64,000 nt of DNA. Origin: Sphyrna mokarran (taxonomy: Eukaryota). Positions within the stretch are counted from its first letter, which is position 1. Every line of letters begins with the position of its first letter. Shown here piece after piece: positions 6,089 through 55,793 of this stretch. The stretch lies in NCBI GenBank assembly GCA_024679065.1, contig JAGIQG010000023.1, forward strand, positions 24,366,001 through 24,430,000, given 5' to 3'. The position numbers and the translations under genes are program-made. The notes under the pieces were generated by a model. That model did not search any database. It had not been told where the DNA came from and saw only the letters and a program-made list of their open reading frames with translations.

Positions 6089-6572
6089 ACCAGTAATTCC
6101 CTCCAATTCAGAGAACGTAACCTTGCAGTAGATCTATGGAATATCTTGCAACTACTGAGGAGAACTGGCACTGACATTACAACAATATTAATTGCCAGCC
6201 CCATGAAGAATTTCTGCTGTCTGCACTTTTGAATGACTTTATAAAAATGCATTTTTATGGAATGGAATTTGGCGATGGCTCTAGAATACATTTATTCAGC
6301 AACTAGTATTTTATCTTTTCAAGTTTATATATCATCTAAGGCTTAAGATGCCGACAGGGAATTGAAAACTTCTGAGTGACAAAGACTCCAACTGTAAGAA
6401 AAATGAGTACAGATAAGGATGGGAACTATGGCTGGAATATACAAAATACTCTTATAAATTGAAAGATAACAGACAACTCCTATTTCCATGAATGGGAAAA
6501 ATATATCAAGATTTATCTTTATATCTACAATTTAATATGTGATAGTGCAACACAAAGCTACTCCAACAAGGT

Positions 6573-29345: not shown

Positions 29346-30650
29346 CCTTGTTTTCTCATTTTTTTAAGTTGTATCTCCAATATTATATAACTTCTTTGTC
29401 ATTGAACTACCATCTAATCTCTCGTATTTTCTCTGACATAGTCTGTTATTGAATAAGTGCGCAGCCCTAAGGCACTGCTGTATCAGTGAAACTAAGTCTC
29501 CTTAACCTTAGTTCCCTGTTTTTCACACATTTCTCCTTATCTTTAAGTTGTATCATCTATATATTTACAACTTCATCATTAAATTATCGTTTAAGTCTTT
29601 TATTTTCTTACTTGGTCTGCTTAACAAATAAATGTGTGGCATTCTGGCACTGCTGTCTCAGCAAAACTAAGTCTCCTTACCTTACTTTCCTGTTTAACTT
29701 AAGTGTCTAATCAGCGTGCCCTTCGGGGACCTGCTGCGTGTGGGTAATGTCTTTTCCTTTACCTTCATCGCAGTCTTTCATTTTACCTTAGTACCCACAA
29801 GGGGTCTGGATGTTTAATGGATCCAGCAATTCAGAATGGGCAGCCTCCCTCTCCACTAAAAAAGTGAGCAAACTTTAATTAAAAATATACGCTCACCCTA
29901 TATAGAAATGCGCTCACTCGATCATCAGCTCCAAATTATCCAGGGCTAAATTGTTGTGAGATTTCTTCCAAGTGGCCTAATTAATGTAAGGACTAAATCT
30001 CTTCATTAAACATTTCATTTCTCGAGACTAGAAAAGTTTATTCTGTTCAATTAAATCCTTCAATTAAACTAGTTTTTACTAAAAGCATTGAAATGTTAGG
30101 ATAAAAAAAATTATAAAATTAAAATATTAAAAAAAATACAAACATGCAATTAAGACAAGACAAATCTCATTTTGGCTGAAAGGGAGATCTCTAGTTTCGC
30201 CTACACAGCAAATGCGCTATCAAGCTTTCTCAAAAGATTTCCGTTTCCATGCCAAAAAGTAGAACAGTTACACTTTTTGATATCAGATTACACAGCCTAG
30301 TTCTTAATTAAAATCAATTTTATTCACTCACAGTCCTGTCAATCTAACATATGCACGTCCTTCATTCAATTATAGTTTTAAATACAGATTTGTTATTCGC
30401 TAATTCTTACTGATTGCATCTGTGCCTCATTAAAAATGGCTTCTTATTGTTATGTGGCATGAGGCATTATCTTCTATTGTGAGTTAGTTTTTTTTTCTAG
30501 TTTAAACTCATTTCCTTACATTTGATATTGACCTGCTGTCAGGTGGTCATACCAGGATATGATGTAGAAATGCCAGCGTTGGACTGGGGTAAACACAGTA
30601 AGAAGTCTGACAACATCAGGTTTAAATCCAACCGATTTATTTGATAGTAA

Positions 30651-30690
30651 ACTCACAAGCTTTCGAACCTCTGGTCTTCGTCAGGTGAAT
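30651..30690 (-). ncRNA. Minimal type I hammerhead ribozyme, intact core
   Basis: Reverse complement ATTCAC CTGACGA AGACC aga GGTTC GAAA gc T T GTGAGT: CUGANGA and GAAA cores, 6-bp stem I (one GU), short stem II, palindromic AAGCUU stem III, predicted cleavage after CUU. Confidence 0.8.
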
Positions 30691-30720
30691 GAGGTGTTCT
30701 GTTTGAGACCAGAATACCTC

Positions 30721-30756
30721 ATTCACCTGACGAAGACACAAGAGTCGAAAGCTCGC
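30721..30756 (+). ncRNA. Minimal type I hammerhead ribozyme, intact core, weakened stem I
   Basis: ATTCAC CTGACGA a GAC acaaga GTC GAAA gc T C g. The 3' strand of stem I is eroded. Confidence 0.72.
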
Positions 30757-31380
30757 TTTTTTACTATCAAATAAATCGGTTGGATTATAAATTGGTGTTG
30801 CTAAATTCTTACTGATTTTACAGTAACAACTCCCTGAAACAAACAACTCCCATCATCTTATGCACTGTTCAAGGAACTCATTGTTTTGTAATTGCTGTTA
30901 TCAGTTAGTTATGCTCAGAGCTGTTCAGAATGGTTATCCAGCCTCACTTCTTATCAGGCAGGAAGAATAAAGATGTTAAACAGTTCTGCAGTTCAGCAGC
31001 ATGATGGCCATTTTCAAACCCATATTGCCTGGCTCTCAAAAAGTCTGGTAGAAACGAGGGTCAGGATTTAGGCCTCAGGAGATCTGGCCTAACCAAAAGT
31101 TCGTTAACTCTCAGCTGGACCAGACAACCCTGACGGTGGGCAGAGGTGGAATATCCCACCCAAGTTCCTTTTCAGAATACTTGAGCTTAGCTCAGCAAAA
31201 TTTTAAGAATTGGTCTATTTGTGCAGGCTTTAAATGTCTCAGTGAATGCTTAGATTTTCTCGACTTTTAAGATTTTGATCAAATTAAAGCAAACCTATGT
31301 TATTGAGGTTGCACTATACGGATAAGGGAGATGGCATGAATTCTTCCAATCTTTTTGCAGTTATCCAACTCAGCTTTAGG

Positions 31381-34950: not shown

Positions 34951-36384
34951 TAAATATTTATATAAATGCTGTGACTACAAGAACAAGTCAGAGGCTCGGA
35001 ACCCTGTTGTGAGTAACTCAGCTCCTGACTTTCCAAAGCTTGGTTACCATCTACAAAGCACAAGTTAGGAATATGATGGAATACTCTCCACTTAATTGGA
35101 TATATGCAGCTCCATCAACATTCATGAACATTCCCATAATCCAGGACAAAGAAGTCCAGTTGATCATTATTCTACCACAAACTTATACATTCATACAAAC
35201 ATTTGTATAAAAGCTTTCCATTCACTGATGCACACAATGGCAGTAGGATGTACCAAATACATGCAGCAATTCACCAAACATCCTTTGATATAACATCTTC
35301 CAAACCCTTGATCTCTTCGAAGGACTTGGGGGAAGCACATGAATGGAATCACTATCAGTCCAAGCTACACACAACCTTGACTTGAAGTTATATCGCTGTA
35401 CCTTCACTATCGTGGAATGTAACATCCTAGAACTCCTTCCCAATGCAGTGTGTGTGTACTGCCATCAGTACACACACTATTGCTATTGAAGAAACTGGCT
35501 CCCCGGCAATTGGAGATGAGCAAGAAATATTGGCCTTTCCAGTATACTCCTATCCTGCGATAGAATATAAAAATAGTGTATGCTGGCACTTAGACCCAAC
35601 ATGAGACTCCTCTCACATGAATTCCCTATTCTCACCCAATCCCCACCCCAGCCCCATTCCTACAACCACTTCACCCTTATGCATGCACCAAGGTTTCGTA
35701 AATGAAATAGTGCTACCTGTTTCAATTCCATGTGCAGTGAGCTCCACATTCTCACCATGCACAGTGTAAAGAAACTCTTCCAATGGGAAAATGAGAGTAA
35801 ACAACCAGAAGTTATAATTCACAAAGGAATCAATTCCTTTGGAATTGATGGTAGGATGAAAGGGTGGAAGCTTTGCAAAAGAGGTTTGAGTACTTTTATC
35901 TTGGATCTTCTAAGCAAGGTTCAGCAAATTTAGTTTTACAATATACTCATTAATGAAAGATTACATTAATCTTTGGATTAATGGAAAGGTGGTTTAGGAG
36001 AGAACATCTTCTATTTGGGTACTGGTTCTGATGTGCTGCCAAGAAGATAATAGGGCAGTGGGAAGGATTTCATGATCCAAAAACAAATTAACAATCGTTT
36101 TGGGTTATAAAGGGTTAACCGAGCAAAATTCAAATCTAATTTTCTTTCAGCTCAGCATTCTCTGCATCCCAATAAAGCACCTGTTGAGGACTAGTATCAT
36201 TGCATTCAGAAATGGTGGCTTTATTAATCTTCCTAGAAATGAAGTTGAATAAGCAAAATTCTGTTGAGACATCCATGTTCTTGTTTATCCTGCCACCCGA
36301 AGAAAGATTTTATTAATTGGAAAGGCAACATGTAGTGAATTGTTTCCTCCAAACTATTTCCTAAAAGTAGTTATACATTTGAAT

Positions 36385-36565
36385 ACATTGAAAAGGCAGC
36401 AGGATATAGCACTTGAGGTGAATGAGATCAAAGGTTATGGGGAAAAAGCAGGATTAGGTTATTGAGTTGGATGATCAGCCATGATCATAATGAATGGTAA
36501 GAATAGGCTTGAAGGACTAAATGGCCTCTTCTTGCTCCTGTTTTCTTTGTTTCTATATTTCTATT
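36385..36565 (+). mobile_element. CR1 3' end
   Basis: gatcaaaggttatggggaaaaagcagga...gatcagccatgatc...atggcctcttcttgctcct followed by a ttctat tail. Confidence 0.75.
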
Positions 36566-37336
36566 TTGTTATAAGACTATGAACAGACCTTCTACTAATT
36601 ATGAAATATGAAACTATGGGCAAGGTTCTTTGGCTATTCATGCCAACAGGATCTTTCTGTCCTGCTGCAGTGAATGGAGATTTGACTGAGCTTTTAGGGT
36701 GGTAGAACTTGAATGGCCAGAAAATACCAGCCTATACTGGGAAAACTTCAATTTGTTAGCGAAAATCCAAATTCTTATCGTGGTGAGGCTTCTTATCACG
36801 TATTGATATGTTGTCTTTAATACAATAATATGTTCCATGGCATTTCACAGGATTAAAAATAAAGTTTGACATAAAGTTTGAGGGCAGATAGTCAAAAGTT
36901 GGTCTAAGAGATCAGTTTAAGGAGCATTTTAAAGAGAGGTAGGGAGGTGCAAGGTTTGAGGGAACAGATTGTAGTGCTTAGTGTAAAGATAGTTAAGGAT
37001 ACGCAGGCTGACAATATGGAATAACAAAAATCAGGAATGCTCAAGGAGCCAGGATTAAATGAGTATAGATATCTCAGAAGGTTGGTAGCCAGCACAAATT
37101 GATGGATTTTCATTTCTGTACAATTACTCCTACTTCCAAGTAGGATTCATCTCTTGCCATCAAAACTCTAGTTATTTCTATTAAATTCTATCAGGCTCCT
37201 TTAACCTTTTGTAGATCATATCATGTCTAAATTTATGAATGGATTGGAAATACACCCATATGATGCCAACAAAAAACCTTACTGAGCTTCTATCTTTTTC
37301 TGTTTCTGTATAACCTTAACCCCCTTACAATTATGA

Positions 37337-37713
37337 TACAGTAAGAAGTCTCACAACACCAGGTTAAACTCCAATAGGTTTATTTAGTATTAGCTGTCAC
37401 AGCAATGTCCCTTCATCTGTTGAGTTTGACATCATCAATTATTCCTAATCATATTCTTTAGTATGGATACCAAACAAAATGTGCAGGACAAGATATTCTA
37501 GAAGAAAATATTAACAATTTATAAGATGGGAAATTATACTCAAACCAATACCTATTTATTAAATAAGTCTTTCCAATTATTGCACGCACCTGATGAAGGA
37601 GCAGTGCTCTGAAAGCTTGTGATACCAAATAAACCTGTTGGACTTTAACCTGGTGTTATGAGACTTCTTACTGTGTCCATTTTAGTCCAACACCAGCATC
37701 TCCACATCATGGC
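37337..37713 (+). mobile_element. Penelope-pLTR inverted-arm cassette enclosing captured local DNA; 11-bp TSD
   Basis: Arms at 37338-37425 and 37587-37674, plus tail to 37713. Perfect TSD TACAATTATGA at 37326-37336 and 37714-37724. Interior 37431-37580 matches 38585-38734. Confidence 0.9.
37587..37621 (+). ncRNA. Minimal type I hammerhead ribozyme, intact core
   Basis: CAC CTGATGA a GGAGC agt GCTCT GAAA gc T T GTG: intact core, 5-bp stem II (one GU), palindromic AAGCUU, 3-bp stem I. Confidence 0.82.
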
Positions 37714-37726
37714 TACAATTATGACA

Positions 37727-38050
37727 GGCATGGCATTGTGGTACAATGGTTAGCATTGCTGCTTCACAACACCAAGGTCTTGGGTTTGATTCCTGGCTTG
37801 GTCACTATATAGAGTTTTCACATTCTCCCCATGACTGCGAGAGTTTCCTCCATGTGCTCCGGCTTCCTCCCACAGTCTAAAGGTGTACAGGTTAGGTGAA
37901 TTGGCCATGCTTAATTGCTCCTTAACGTCAGAGAGACTAGTTAGGGTAATTGGATAGGGTTATGGGGATATGATCTGGGTAGGATTTTGGTCGGTGCAGA
38001 CTTGATGGGCCAAATGATCTCCTTCTGCACTGGAGGGATTCCATGATTCA
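37727..38050 (+). mobile_element. HE1 V-SINE, type A tail
   Basis: gtggtacaatggttagcattgctgcttcac...gtcggtgcagacttgatgggccaaatgatctccttctgcactggagggattccatgatt. Confidence 0.9.
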
Positions 38051-38922
38051 ATGACAGGATCTATTTGCTTTACGTGATATTCACTTCTTAAGGATTTTGC
38101 AGCCATTGAATGTCTTTTCATTATAGTGTTCAATTGATTTATCTTGTGGGGCTTGAAGGGATGGATTGTCTGGAGTGTCTTATTAAATTCAAAATTCATT
38201 GATGCTTGATCCACAAGATACTTTCTGTTGATGTTTTGGCATAAAGGTTGTCGAGTGCAAAATAAGATTGTCATTTTATATTGACCTCAACTTTACAGTA
38301 AGATTGACAGGAGAATCCTCATACCCACAATATCCCCCACCACTTGCCTCAAGTGAAACAGTTCCCTGCTCTCCATATACAATAAAGCCTTCTGAACCAA
38401 AGTCGGTGAATTTGATGACATACAAATCTGCAATCTGATCCCAAGATCTTGATTTCAGAAAGCAAAGATCTCAGAAAGCAGCATGCTGAGGAAAGAATTT
38501 ACACTTAAAATGCGTTCACACTTCTGTTAACATAACAAGCGAAGATACATTGTATGAATGTATTAGTGTTCATTCGCTGTTGCTATCATCAACTATTCCT
38601 CATCACATTCTTTAGCTTGGACACTAAACAAAATGTGAAGGACAAGATATGCTAGGAGAAAATATTAACAATTTATAAAAAGGAAAATTATTCCCAAATT
38701 AATACCTATTTAGTAAATAAATCATACCAGCTATAACACCGCAAGTACTTAGTCACAATAAATACAACATTTGGAATGTTTGTTATGGACAATCTATTCT
38801 TCCTCATTCATACTAAACATTCACTTCACAGTGCATATATATTACTTAGTTTAAAATCACTGAGTACTTCAATCTTTATGGCAGAAAAGAACACTGAATT
38901 ACTAGAGGTATGTACACAATAT

Positions 38923-39067
38923 ATGTGTGAGTGTGACTGTGTGCCCTAAGATTGACTGGCATCCCATCTTGGGTGTACTCCGCCAAATTCCCAGCGCCTG
39001 TCAGGGCAGACTTCAACTCCCCATGACCCTGAATTGAAGTAAGTGGCTACGTGAAAGTGAAATGAAA
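38923..39067 (+). mobile_element. 5'-truncated SINE/L2 3' tail of a type familiar from bony fishes; 13-bp TSD
   Basis: gtgtgccctaagattgactggcatcccatcttgggtgtactccgcc...ccccatgaccctgaattgaagtaagtgg. TSD atgtacacaatat (38910-38922) / atgtacataatat (39068-39080). Confidence 0.75.
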
Positions 39068-39099
39068 ATGTACATAATATTTTCACAAGTTTTAAAGCT

Positions 39100-39384
39100 T
39101 ATTTTATTAGTGTTAGAAGTAGGCTTGCTCTAACACTGCAGTGATGTTACTGTGAAAATTCCCGAGTCGTCACACTCTGCCATGTGATCAGGTACACTGA
39201 GGGAGAATTTAGCATAGCCAATGCATCTAACCAGCATGTCTTTCGGACTGTGGGAGGAAACCGGAGCACCAGGAAGAAACCCAAGCAGACACGGGGAGAA
39301 CGTGCAAACTCCGCACATACAGTGACCCAAGTCTGGGTCTCTGGCGCTGTGAGACAGTAGTGCTAACAATTGTGCCGCCATGCC
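39100..39384 (-). mobile_element. V-SINE, type B tail
   Basis: tttattagtgttagaagtaggcttgc...gggagaatttagcatagccaatgc...gtgctaacaattgtgccgccatgcc. Confidence 0.9.
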
Positions 39385-39628
39385 TTCTTGTTTAAATTTC
39401 CAATCAAGATAACAAGGCAATGAGTTATCTTTCTCAATGTACTTCAGTTCAATCATTTTACTGAATTACACAGACAGGTATTCTCAAACTGTGGAAGAAA
39501 GAAATCTAATGTTGGTAATAATCTTTCCTCATGCTCAGTTGTGTTTTTTCCATGTCTGTCAGAAGAATTCAGCACTGAGAGAAATAATTATTTTTAAAAA
39601 AGCACTGGTAAAAGACTATAAAAACAAT

Positions 39629-40785
39629 GGAGGCACTTCTCCCAAAAAAATTCAAAGAGTCAAATTTGTGTAAAAACTAGAGTAAATCCCATTGCTTTTT
39701 TTCAGCGGGATTTTCAAAATTGATCTCCCACAGTCTAAGCAGAGGAGTGCCTCAGTGTGAATCGTGCTAAAAATCAGTGGGCAGGGCCTATTTCCACTGG
39801 GAAGGCCACCAGCATAGCATTGAGTGGGCCATTCTGCATGTGCTGATCTGTTAGCGCTGAGATTGGCGCATGTGTCGTTGCCCCGTATTGTCAGCCTCCT
39901 GAAAGCTGACCAGCTCTGCGATCCCACATCGCAGTCCCTCTGACCACCCCCTCCCCCCGAACAACCCAATCACTGGCTCCGCAAACATATCCAGGGCCAG
40001 CCTCAACTCCCCCTCTCCCCCCCATCTGCCTCGATTTCTCCCACCCAATCCTTCTGGCAGCCCCAGTGTCCCAATCCTCTCCCCACTAATGGCAACCCTT
40101 CACTCTCCCCCCCCCACCCCTGCCACCAGCAGCCCCGATTCCCTCATGTCCTGCAGTCCCGACTCTCCTGGGGAGGCAACTCCCACCCTGATGCCTAGCC
40201 TGTCACTGGTCTCCCTCTCTCTGCTCATGATCCCTCTGGCAGAGTGTTAGCAGGATCCCCCCACCCTTCTCTCATTCCCACTGATCATCCCCAGAGACCC
40301 TGCTTTCCAATAACCCTCAATAGGTCCCATCCCCTTGACACTACTTGATGCCCAGTGGGGAGCGCCTTAAGATCCCTTGGGCATTGCCACTTTGCCCCTT
40401 TGGCAGTGCCAGGGGGCCAGGCTGGCACTGACAAAGTGCCAATGCCCGTGGGCAGCCCCTCTTACCCCCTTCACTCTACTGGGATCAGGCAGCTAGCTCC
40501 CCGCGAGTGGGGAGCTATAGTAAACTTCCCGATGAGTGAACCACTTCTGGCCAGCGAGGAGGTGGTGAAGAGATGCTAGTGACCTCAATCTCGAGCCTAC
40601 TTATGATAGTTAAAATAGATTGAAATGAGCATTTAAATAAATCATGCAGCTGTGCACGATTTCTAGCATGGAGTTAACAATGCCAGAAATCCAGCTGTTG
40701 GAGACTCGTGGAGACCATGGCACGCAGTGGAAAGGCCAGCCCACTGCACTACAGAAACAACACAGCGGGCTGGGAGAAGAGTCCC
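39629..40785. mobile_element. Non-autonomous Harbinger-like element with a C-rich interior
   Basis: Ends ggaggcacttctccc ... gggagaagagtccc. An inverted fragment of the same family lies at 46140-46620 (tttgacacttagaattattttgaaagaattactc). Confidence 0.6.
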
Positions 40786-41124
40786 AAATGAATCTATTTT
40801 CTTTAAGTATTTCACCTAACTCTTTGGAATATTTTGTGGTTCACAGCAAAATTTGTTTATTTTCAATTCTGTTTGAATTATTTAACTTGAAAATATGCAA
40901 TGTATTAGATTTACAACTTGCCATTCAACTGGCAATTCTGGCATTGTGAATCTACTGCTTATTAAGCAAACTGCCTAATTTGCACTTCCATTGATTAAAA
41001 AATAAAATGCCAGCAGTTTCTCTATTGCTGGTCAATTGACAATGTTAGTTTTATGCCCAGTAATAAGCTGTAAAGTGCCCCAGTGTATGTGTGTCCAGGA
41101 TGTTGCAACAGTGCAGGAGAAACA

Positions 41125-45641: not shown

Positions 45642-45861
45642 TAGTAATAAGTCTCACAACACCCAACAGGTTTACTTGGAACAGGTTTATTTGGTAGCAT
45701 AAGCCACAAGCTTTCGGAGTGTTACTCCTTTATCAGGTGAGTGCTTATGAGTGCTGAAAGCATGTGGCTTGTGTTACCAAATAAACCTGTTGGACTTTAA
45801 TCTGGTGTTGTGAGATTTCTTACTGTGCCCAGCCCAGTCCAACACCAGCACTTCCACCTCA
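45642..45861. mobile_element. Palindromic Penelope-pLTR cassette; 12-bp TSD
   Basis: Inverted arms, tail on the right. TSD tgttggtatgaa (45630-45641) / tgttggtgtgaa (45862-45873). Minus-strand motif cactcac CTGATAA a GGAGT aac ACTCC GAAA gctt gtgg with G8 mutated. Confidence 0.88.
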
Positions 45862-45889
45862 TGTTGGTGTGAAGTCAGGCTATGTTTAG

Positions 45890-46137
45890 TACCATGAAAA
45901 TTTCTGTTTCCTGCCTCAACTCTTTGCTGCTTCTTTCTAACTGTTCAGATGTGGAGGTGCCAGCATTGGACTGGGGTCAAAAACCTGTTGGACTTTATCC
46001 TGATGTTGTGAGACTTTTTACTGTGTTCATCCAGCATACAGATGCTCATGGCCGATTCCAGCGTTAGTTTTTTCTTATGAAGGAGCAGCTTGCGGATAAC
46101 TTCACTATGGACCCCACACACAGTATGACCTCTCACA
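45890..46137 (-). mobile_element. Gypsy gag-like remnant split by a 76-bp Penelope mini-insert
   Basis: VCGVHSEVIRKLLLHKKKLTLESAMSICMLDE | QLERSSKELRQETEI reads through once 45948-46023 and one TSD copy are removed. Confidence 0.65.
45948..46023. mobile_element. Minimal Penelope-derived insert (tail plus opposite arm end, no hammerhead); 6-bp TSD
   Basis: gatgtggaggtgccagcattggactgggg joined to aaacctgttggactt...ttactg. TSD tgttca at 45942-45947 and 46024-46029. Confidence 0.8.
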
Positions 46138-55199: not shown

Positions 55200-55793
55200 T
55201 AAAGTTGTCTACCTGATACACTGTAGGAAAGGATGTTCTGAGGCATGATACATTGGGGAGACCATGCAGATGAATGAACACTGCTTGACAATCACTAGCC
55301 AAGATTATTCTTTTCCTGTTGGGGGATACTTCAGCGGTCACAGGCATGCGGCCTCTGATCTTTGGGTGAGCTTTGTCCAAGGCAACCTTCACAATACACG
55401 ACAGCGCACAGTCGCTGAGCAGAGACTGATAGCCAAGTTCTGCACACATGAGGACAGCCTCAACCGGAATCTTGGGTTCATGTCACCCTATCTGTAACCC
55501 CCATGATTTCCCTAGGCTTCCAAAATCTCACTAACTGTCCTGTCTGGAGACAATAGACATCTCTTTAAACTGTGCTTAACCCTCTCTCCACTCACATTGT
55601 CTGAGATTTGATTACCTGTAAAGACTCGAATTCCAACATTATTTTGTAAATTGGGTTTGTGTCTTTATATGCCTTGTTTGTGAACAGGACTCCAACTTGC
55701 CTAACATAGGAACAGCAAGCGCTGTGAAAGCTAGTGGCTTTTGCTACAAAATAAACCTGTTGGATTTTAACCTGGTGTTATGAGACTTTTTAT
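55200..55793 (+). mobile_element. Penelope-like element 3' fragment (GIY-YIG plus pLTR), no inverted arm; 8-bp TSD
   Basis: VVYLIHCRKGCSEA*YIGETMQ..MNEH..AEQRLIAKFCTHEDSLNRNLGFM. The pLTR matches 18482-18790 reversed. TSD taagagac at 55192-55199 and 55794-55801. Hammerhead core decayed near 55700-55736. Confidence 0.9.

Follow-up and report, generated by a model that had tools for sequence, protein, structure and literature searches.

A dead Penelope-like insertion with a centre copied from host DNA about 1 kb away

The window analysed here, a stretch of 64,000 nucleotides of Sphyrna mokarran DNA, carries at 37326-37724 what we read, with fair though not high confidence, as a dead, 5'-truncated insertion of a Penelope-like element (PLE), the centre of which (about 155 bp) was copied from about 1 kb away, likely by repair synthesis joining two cDNA ends at integration. 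That the middle of the insertion came from nearby host DNA had been proposed in an earlier note, made from the letters alone, and it holds: a single-copy donor lies about 1 kb away. Local capture at PLE junctions is real and recurrent, and is a variant of a known process. The locus itself gives no sign of function; we infer that it is a repair scar which decayed neutrally, not a cargo vector.

The cassette, its filler and its hammerhead motif

The features of the locus are collected in Table 1. The perfect 11-bp target-site duplication (TSD) described in the earlier note around both arms is exact: TACAATTATGA is present at 37326-37336 and 37714-37724 and has no further occurrence in the window. 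The arms are inverted, as had been noted, their outer parts (37335-37390 and 37622-37677) being 91% complementary over 56 nt, but the left arm is not limited to its outer 55 bp: it extends to 37425 and includes a broken antisense hammerhead. Compared over their whole length, the two arms are identical at 75/88 positions (77/91 in a second alignment). The tail of the right arm is absent from the left one; the locus presents an inverted 5'-truncated copy, a one-sided tail of 30-40 bp and a TSD, which is the arrangement that characterizes EN+ PLEs. The SINE-like repeat at 37725-38058 abuts the right TSD of the cassette, and its flanking ATGACAGG overlaps that TSD.

Table 1. Positions of the cassette, its parts and the donor in the window
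Feature	Position	Strand	Basis
Left TSD, 11 bp	37326-37336	+	exact match to 37714-37724
Short inverted arm: PLE 3' end without tail, hammerhead core broken	37337-37425	-	75/88 identity with right arm
Filler copied from 38580-38740	37426-37586	+	127/150 ungapped, two genome matches
Tailed arm: PLE 3' end	37584-37713	+	1749 first-look genome candidates
Minimal type-I hammerhead motif with all core bases and partial decay of the stems	37587-37621	+	
Tail of ~37 bp, right arm only	37677-37713	+	left-arm alignment stops at 37677
Right TSD, 11 bp	37714-37724	+	exact match to left TSD
High-copy SINE-like repeat separating cassette from donor	37725-38058	+	contig depth 1e4-1e6, ATGACAGG on both sides
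Donor segment, single-copy, without PLE arms	38580-38740	+	alignment and genome search

The alignment on which the proposal of a local origin was founded could be reproduced: 37431-37580 matches 38585-38734 at 127/150 positions without gaps, on the same strand and with an offset of 1154 bp. The diagonal extends slightly on either side, to about 37426-37586 against 38580-38740, which gives a filler of about 155 bp with a well-aligned core at 37431-37575; 14 transitions and 9 transversions separate the filler from its donor. A genome search with 38585-38734 returned exactly two matches, the filler and the donor, as the earlier note had anticipated. The search tool skips common words, and the low copy number is backed by contig depth, which is 2-14 over the filler versus millions over the arms; the filler is therefore low-copy, and the spacer contains neither Penelope sequence nor a high-copy repeat. 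The donor lies 875 bp from the edge of the cassette, or 539 bp once the SINE-like repeat is removed. At the right junction the last three bases of the filler, CAC at 37584-37586, are compatible with the donor and the right arm alike; the left junction is too diverged to be read.

The earlier note had called the hammerhead of the right arm intact. All core bases are indeed in place (37590-37596 and 37611-37618, with an extra A at 37597), but the stems are decayed: a G-U pair closes stem II, stem I has 3 bp and a U is found at H17. An Rfam scan of 35000-41000 at E<=1 gave no match, and a functional ribozyme is not supported. The lowest-energy fold of the motif differs from a hammerhead (z -1.0), and MFE folding recovered the hammerhead in 0 of 4 sequences. 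In the left arm, the antisense motif is broken by changes to U4 and to the GAAA motif. The full core was found in 115 distinct family copies among those fetched, 113 of them with the extra A. Pairs 1-4 of stem II are kept in 111, 105, 108 and 96 of the 115 copies, with G-C/A-U and A-U/C-G swaps, and pairs 1-4 of stem I in 94, 103, 99 and 83. To judge from these copies, the family arm carries a minimal hammerhead with paired and partly covarying stems.

The family and the recurrence of local capture

In a first look at the genome, the arm gave 1749 candidates (best copies 86-93% identical) and the body 6662. Upstream of the arm, the longer copy L058 reads Y-L-I-R-C-R-K-G-C-P-E-V-W-Y-I-G-E-T, with two cysteines between GIY and YIG, and a Cys-rich stretch, C-x4-C-x2-C, precedes EN in the longer copies. 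These two characters point to an EN+ PLE, perhaps a Neptune-like one. The GIY-YIG is a motif reading on decayed frames, ten read-through frames of the longer copies having given no Pfam match, and the fetched copies hold only a thumb-like RT stretch, none of them reaching the RT core. Two loci taken at first for long PLE copies, L060 and L061, proved to be largely satellite and were dropped from the library; they lie on different contigs and show near-identical PLE fragments next to the same short-period satellite, L061 being 3 kb from a contig end. Further family copies are present in the window at 18444-19203, 30559-30821 (a subfamily with a different stem II), 45643-45862, 45948-46030 and 55249-55792, with three head-to-head cassettes. 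On G000:C805, at about 24477784-24480756 (region 311784-314756), a head-to-head structure of about 3 kb with long symmetric arms belongs to a related subfamily and may be almost full-length.

The inverted-arm frame is the normal product of the family. Among 86 unselected arms there were 29 head-to-head pairs (the target itself and two pairs more than 2 kb apart included), mostly with 0-30 nt between the arms. A search by exact motif found 15 cassettes with gaps of 40-70 nt and 281 with gaps of 71-400 nt, against none for the reversed-pattern control. Extrapolation from 16 cassettes in 464 kb gives roughly 1e5 for the genome; by a rough estimate, perhaps 1e3 would contain a traceable local filler.

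The frequency of local donors was determined on 60 ten-kb loci, mostly picked by eye for spacers that did not look like PLE and blind to donors; 59 were testable. They yielded 43 foreign runs of at least 20 nt, target included, of which 11 were high-copy and were excluded, leaving 32 low-copy runs (31 non-target). A donor was found in their own 10-kb neighbourhood for 13 of these 31 fillers, versus 21 of 402 length-matched low-copy segments drawn at random (Fisher p=3e-8) and a match rate of 0.6% per decoy at decoy loci. The comparison of spacers with nearby DNA across the genome, which the earlier note had called for, thus gave a positive answer. Two of the positives are weak, L116 (three decoys score equally) and L148 (16 bp), and their removal brings the strict count to 11/31. 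As to the remaining particulars of the sample, L141, which lacks the motif used in the search, was not entered in the donor tests, L123 and L193 appear foreign to the eye and were masked by the library, the 80-bp run of L138 is DNA between two cassettes and was kept as a miss, and certain tail-side labels of L132 and L191 are unreliable. When the spacer was not a basis for selection, i.e. for the first 50 of the 281 listed cassettes, a foreign run was present in 14 and a donor within 3 kb in 4; among the short-gap cassettes, 1/15 had a 21-bp exact local copy. Fillers of the repeat class also fit, the own match being the best of 99 for L204 and the second for L124.

The locally sourced fillers measure 16-160 bp. 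Their 17 donor pieces (target and the two repeat-class cases included) occur on either side of the cassette, at 141-2145 bp (median 743, or 539 without repeats), and none was found beyond that distance in the ~4.8 kb searched; 8 share the orientation of the filler and 9 are opposite to it. Within those ~4.8 kb, 18 of the 31 low-copy fillers had no donor, and L196, L199, L202, L119 and L130 had none. The spacer of L125 (L125:4884-5198, 315 bp) is single-copy in the genome and the genome search found no donor for it; it may be original DNA between two insertions. A clear TSD was seen for 4/16 cassettes with a local filler and 14/44 others, versus 10/300 in a null of mismatched pairs. In L191 two local donors are joined through an overlap of 5-6 bp. 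Several direct junctions have 2-6 bases in common, as read by eye on diverged ends and without a null, and many carry extra short filler. In L116 (4951-5067, donor 6174-6240), the two arms continue, across short linkers that resemble each other, into one and the same strand of the donor, and one of them has an internal deletion; this structure could be a fold-back, the outcome of conversion, or the result of both cDNAs copying one template. High-copy fragments, presumably LINE-like, occupy the cassette centre in L129, L136, L192, L197 and L210; either they inserted into the junction later or they were templates captured along with it.

Relatives' contigs exclude the misassembly against which the earlier note had cautioned. 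Arm, insert and arm are bridged by a contig of organism B (37392-37629, with 21 differences and no gap) and by one of organism D (37356-37606); a contig of organism C covers the insert together with the last bases of the left arm (37410-37582). Run X1 has a contig that includes the donor and is identical to the window, and X2-X4 have contigs that include it at 88-92% identity; X1, which possibly comes from the very sample used for the assembly, was not counted as support. The filler is present in all three relatives compared (B, C and D), with no empty site among them, and A and B have different letters at 72/882 sites of the donor flank, which makes the insertion event older than the A/B split. 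Among the shared differences listed inside the filler, 5/7 revert to the donor's letter in relatives, as expected if filler and donor started identical. An artefact or coincidence in the wider sense (faulty assembly, a repeat common to both places, or a local duplicate already there when two separate insertions landed on either side of it) could appeal to the ~5% of random low-copy segments that have a local look-alike and to a depth hole in run X1, where one bin over part of the insert falls to 0.5. It has to face, besides the presence of the insert in three other organisms and the bridging of both junctions by two contigs, the single exact TSD that encloses the entire unit, the single-copy nature of the segment (its donor apart) and an enrichment of local donors over control with an odds ratio of 13. 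This explanation is already largely refuted and we give it practically no weight.

The earlier note had also envisaged that the cassette might be re-mobilised in trans. A non-autonomous, ribozyme-ended vector, moved or movable with its cargo, would agree with the complete hammerhead core kept in the right arm and with the Adineta vaga case, where pLTRs sufficed to mobilise a host gene in trans (PMC3846280, in part). The cargo, however, exists in two genome copies only, 1154 bp apart; for two other cargos, those of L137 and L127, the best match was the local donor, and 0/10 remote matches had an arm within ~650 bp. Both arms are decayed. In Anolis, the PLE RNA must reach nt 172 of the ORF, past the point at which RT begins (111-118), and the element can do without ribozyme cleavage (PMC11167929, in part); the copy described here terminates at the tail, a point that counts against a vector insofar as the RNA requirement may be extrapolated from Anolis across clades. 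We regard re-mobilisation, past or future, as very improbable.

Timing of capture and the way the filler was laid

At this locus, the insert differs from its donor at 21/145 positions (14.5%) and the arms differ from each other at 13/88 (14.8%, p=1.0), in agreement with the earlier judgement that filler and arms are of roughly the same age class. Pooled over 13 loci (L208 was left out of the arm-arm pooling for its short alignment), the values were 14.7% for insert versus donor and 17.8% for arm versus arm (p=0.06). The 11 loci with donors more than 400 bp away gave, together, 16.9% against 15.6% expected from the arms. The four with donors closer than 400 bp (L135, L140, L127 and L195) behaved otherwise: their fillers are only 18/272 (6.6%) from the donors, versus 50/372 per lineage for their arms relative to the family yardstick. 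The arms of these four seem more mutated than average (13.4% versus 9.4% per lineage), and the filler appears younger than the arms in L135 (p=0.0006) and L127 (p=0.03). Insert-donor divergence rises with donor distance (rho 0.81, n=15), and no correlation was found between filler age and arm divergence (rho -0.13, n=13; rho -0.32, n=15). The age deficit of the near-donor fillers and the distance trend suggest that some captures are later palindrome repairs, or were homogenised by short-range conversion.

Palindromes undergo centre-break revision. The whole pattern could accordingly be read as later repair: a near-perfect palindrome of about 90 bp would have integrated first, its centre would have broken as a hairpin or cruciform, and the gap would have been patched with a copy of nearby DNA. 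The youth of the nearest-donor inserts, the dependence of divergence on distance and not on the arms, and the near-palindromic state of most unselected cassettes, with their 0-30 nt between arms, all speak for this reading; as a variant, gene conversion between insert and donor over short range would leave a similar age signal. Against it, the insert at this locus is not younger than its arms (the outer arm predicts 8%), the 11 loci with distant donors fit arm age when pooled, and insert and arms co-occur in the contigs of relatives. We consider later repair rather unlikely, though it deserves serious attention.

The reading that we favour, repair synthesis at integration, rests on the TSD, the two head-to-head arms, the single-copy local donor and the recurrence across the family. 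A GIY-YIG endonuclease would make an 11-nt staggered cut, and each target strand would prime a short cDNA on the PLE RNA, one at the tail site and the other about 37 nt upstream; both cDNAs would halt just beyond the hammerhead. As the cDNAs are of the same polarity and unable to anneal along their length, end-joining would be needed, and a free 3' end could prime on exposed or invaded DNA nearby, copy about 155 nt and release. If the SINE-like repeat came in later, the template would at that time have been at a distance of about 540 bp. The copied strand would finally be joined to the other cDNA via a few shared bases (CAC). Extension of both strands has a precedent, since the Anolis PLE protein, a predicted dimer, cleaves and extends both from two initiation sites (PMC11167929, in part). 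Repair synthesis on nearby DNA is suggested by the origin of fillers from either side and strand, by the patchwork of L191, by the 2-6 shared bases and by the extra short filler. The fillers are longer, and their donors more distant, than is usual for polymerase theta, and both features suit an aborted step of the SDSA type, which has been proposed for L1. Several observations run counter to this reading: the near-donor fillers look younger than the arms, with a divergence that follows distance and not arm age; 18/31 fillers have no donor within ~4.8 kb and only 4/16 local-filler cassettes a clear TSD; filler lengths and donor distances go beyond both typical polymerase-theta inserts and the L1 cases; and in L116 the entry of both arms into the same donor strand is not explained by simple resection.

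The last point leads to the reverse transcriptase as the possible agent. A PLE RT dimer that assembles the inverted junction in place on the chromosome, and that switches by itself from the PLE RNA to local host DNA or nascent RNA, is, in our estimate, unlikely. Were it true, local capture would be a built-in step of Penelope integration that has left about a thousand short copies of host DNA in the genome, and both cDNAs would sometimes copy the same donor strand, as in L116. The enzyme may have jumped from its own RNA to a local nascent host transcript or single-stranded DNA before end joining, which we hold to be distinctly doubtful. Template jumps have been proposed for PLEs (PMC3846280, in part). 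The arms of L116 enter one donor strand at nearly the same point, both pieces of L191 can be read as copies of one strand, and the spacers of L126, L141, L145, L184 and L200 seem, by eye, to hold PLE sequence downstream of the tail, which suggests template jumps to RNA 3' of the RT start site. What weighs against a jump to a host transcript is that 17/17 donor pieces lie within 2.2 kb, with a median of ~0.5 kb without repeats, so that an exposed DNA tract fits better than a long pre-mRNA. Nor was a host exon found: a comparison of about 26-27 ORFs of the window with Pfam gave one unrelated RT match. This match (RVT_1 at 24823-25917, E 1.5e-23) is carried by a 365-codon ORF at 24820-25917 (-), which is LINE-like and unrelated to the cassette.

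Relation to known systems

The cassette shares with described EN+ PLEs (PMC8557442, PMC3846280 and PMC11167929, each in part) the head-to-head arms, a one-sided tail of 30-40 bp, an AT-rich TSD of ~11 bp, a minimal hammerhead in the arm and, in longer copies, a GIY-YIG motif. The difference lies at the arm junction, where they have element sequence and where the present cassette has host DNA from the neighbourhood of the target. In Adineta vaga, too, solo pLTRs within a TSD enclose unrelated sequence, with host-derived spacers in Pen1_Av (PMC3846280, in part): a host gene was captured there between pLTRs with TSDs, and so were a few non-coding sequences, and for the non-coding ones the portion of that source drawn on here gives no local donors. 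In the main Adineta vaga example, a whole gene lies between two direct pLTRs at a new site reached in trans, whereas the cargo here is short and local, sits between inverted arms and has not spread.

A parallel outside PLEs is offered by L1, with its twin priming and its templated insertions (bioRxiv 2024.08.27.596794; PMC11702581; both in part), which likewise involve non-element DNA of less than 250 bp from near the site, two cDNAs, joining by microhomology and an SDSA-like model. As in L1, non-element DNA of less than 250 bp from the neighbourhood is here duplicated inside the TSD. One study counted 22 cases among 3,598 insertions, without having specifically sought them, and attributed them to an SDSA-like step (bioRxiv 2024.08.27.596794, in part); three cases are given in the other (PMC11702581, in part). 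The L1 templates are typically within 15 bp of the site, whereas the donors described here are 0.14-2.1 kb away (875 bp at this locus), and, unlike in the L1 cases, the filler is bordered on either side by the same 3' end. The jumps suggested by the spacers of L126, L141, L145, L184 and L200 would be like L1 'twin priming and 3' switching'. Polymerase-theta inserts come in both orientations, form multi-source patchworks and have short shared junction bases, traits that the present fillers may share, but they are typically shorter than 25 bp and ~85% are primed within 10 bp (PMC5068794, in part), as opposed to ~155 bp copied from ~0.5-0.9 kb away.

The earlier note knew of no description of local capture. 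This stands for Penelope: in the literature searched, subscription journals being outside its scope, we found no report of locally templated filler at PLE inverted junctions. It does not stand in general, cargo between pLTRs (PMC3846280, in part) and local insertions at L1 having both come first. The PLE cycle has been called undefined (PMC8557442, in part), and self-priming on an antisense template has been proposed for the inverted end (PMC3846280, in part). If it was laid at integration, a local filler exactly at the inverted junction would mean that the junction is made on the chromosome between two separately primed cDNAs, which agrees with the in vitro extension of two strands (PMC11167929, in part). 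The family pattern is thus a useful result, since it opens the origin of the PLE inverted end to testing. The cassettes also form a large fossil record of germ-line break repair, in which template distance, strand and junction can be read.

Non-LTR retrozymes (bioRxiv 10.64898/2026.07.22.740005, in part) are, like this cassette, short non-coding units derived from PLEs with a type-I hammerhead; they form tandem arrays amplified as a unit, whereas the cassette is single-copy and inverted and holds a unique cargo.
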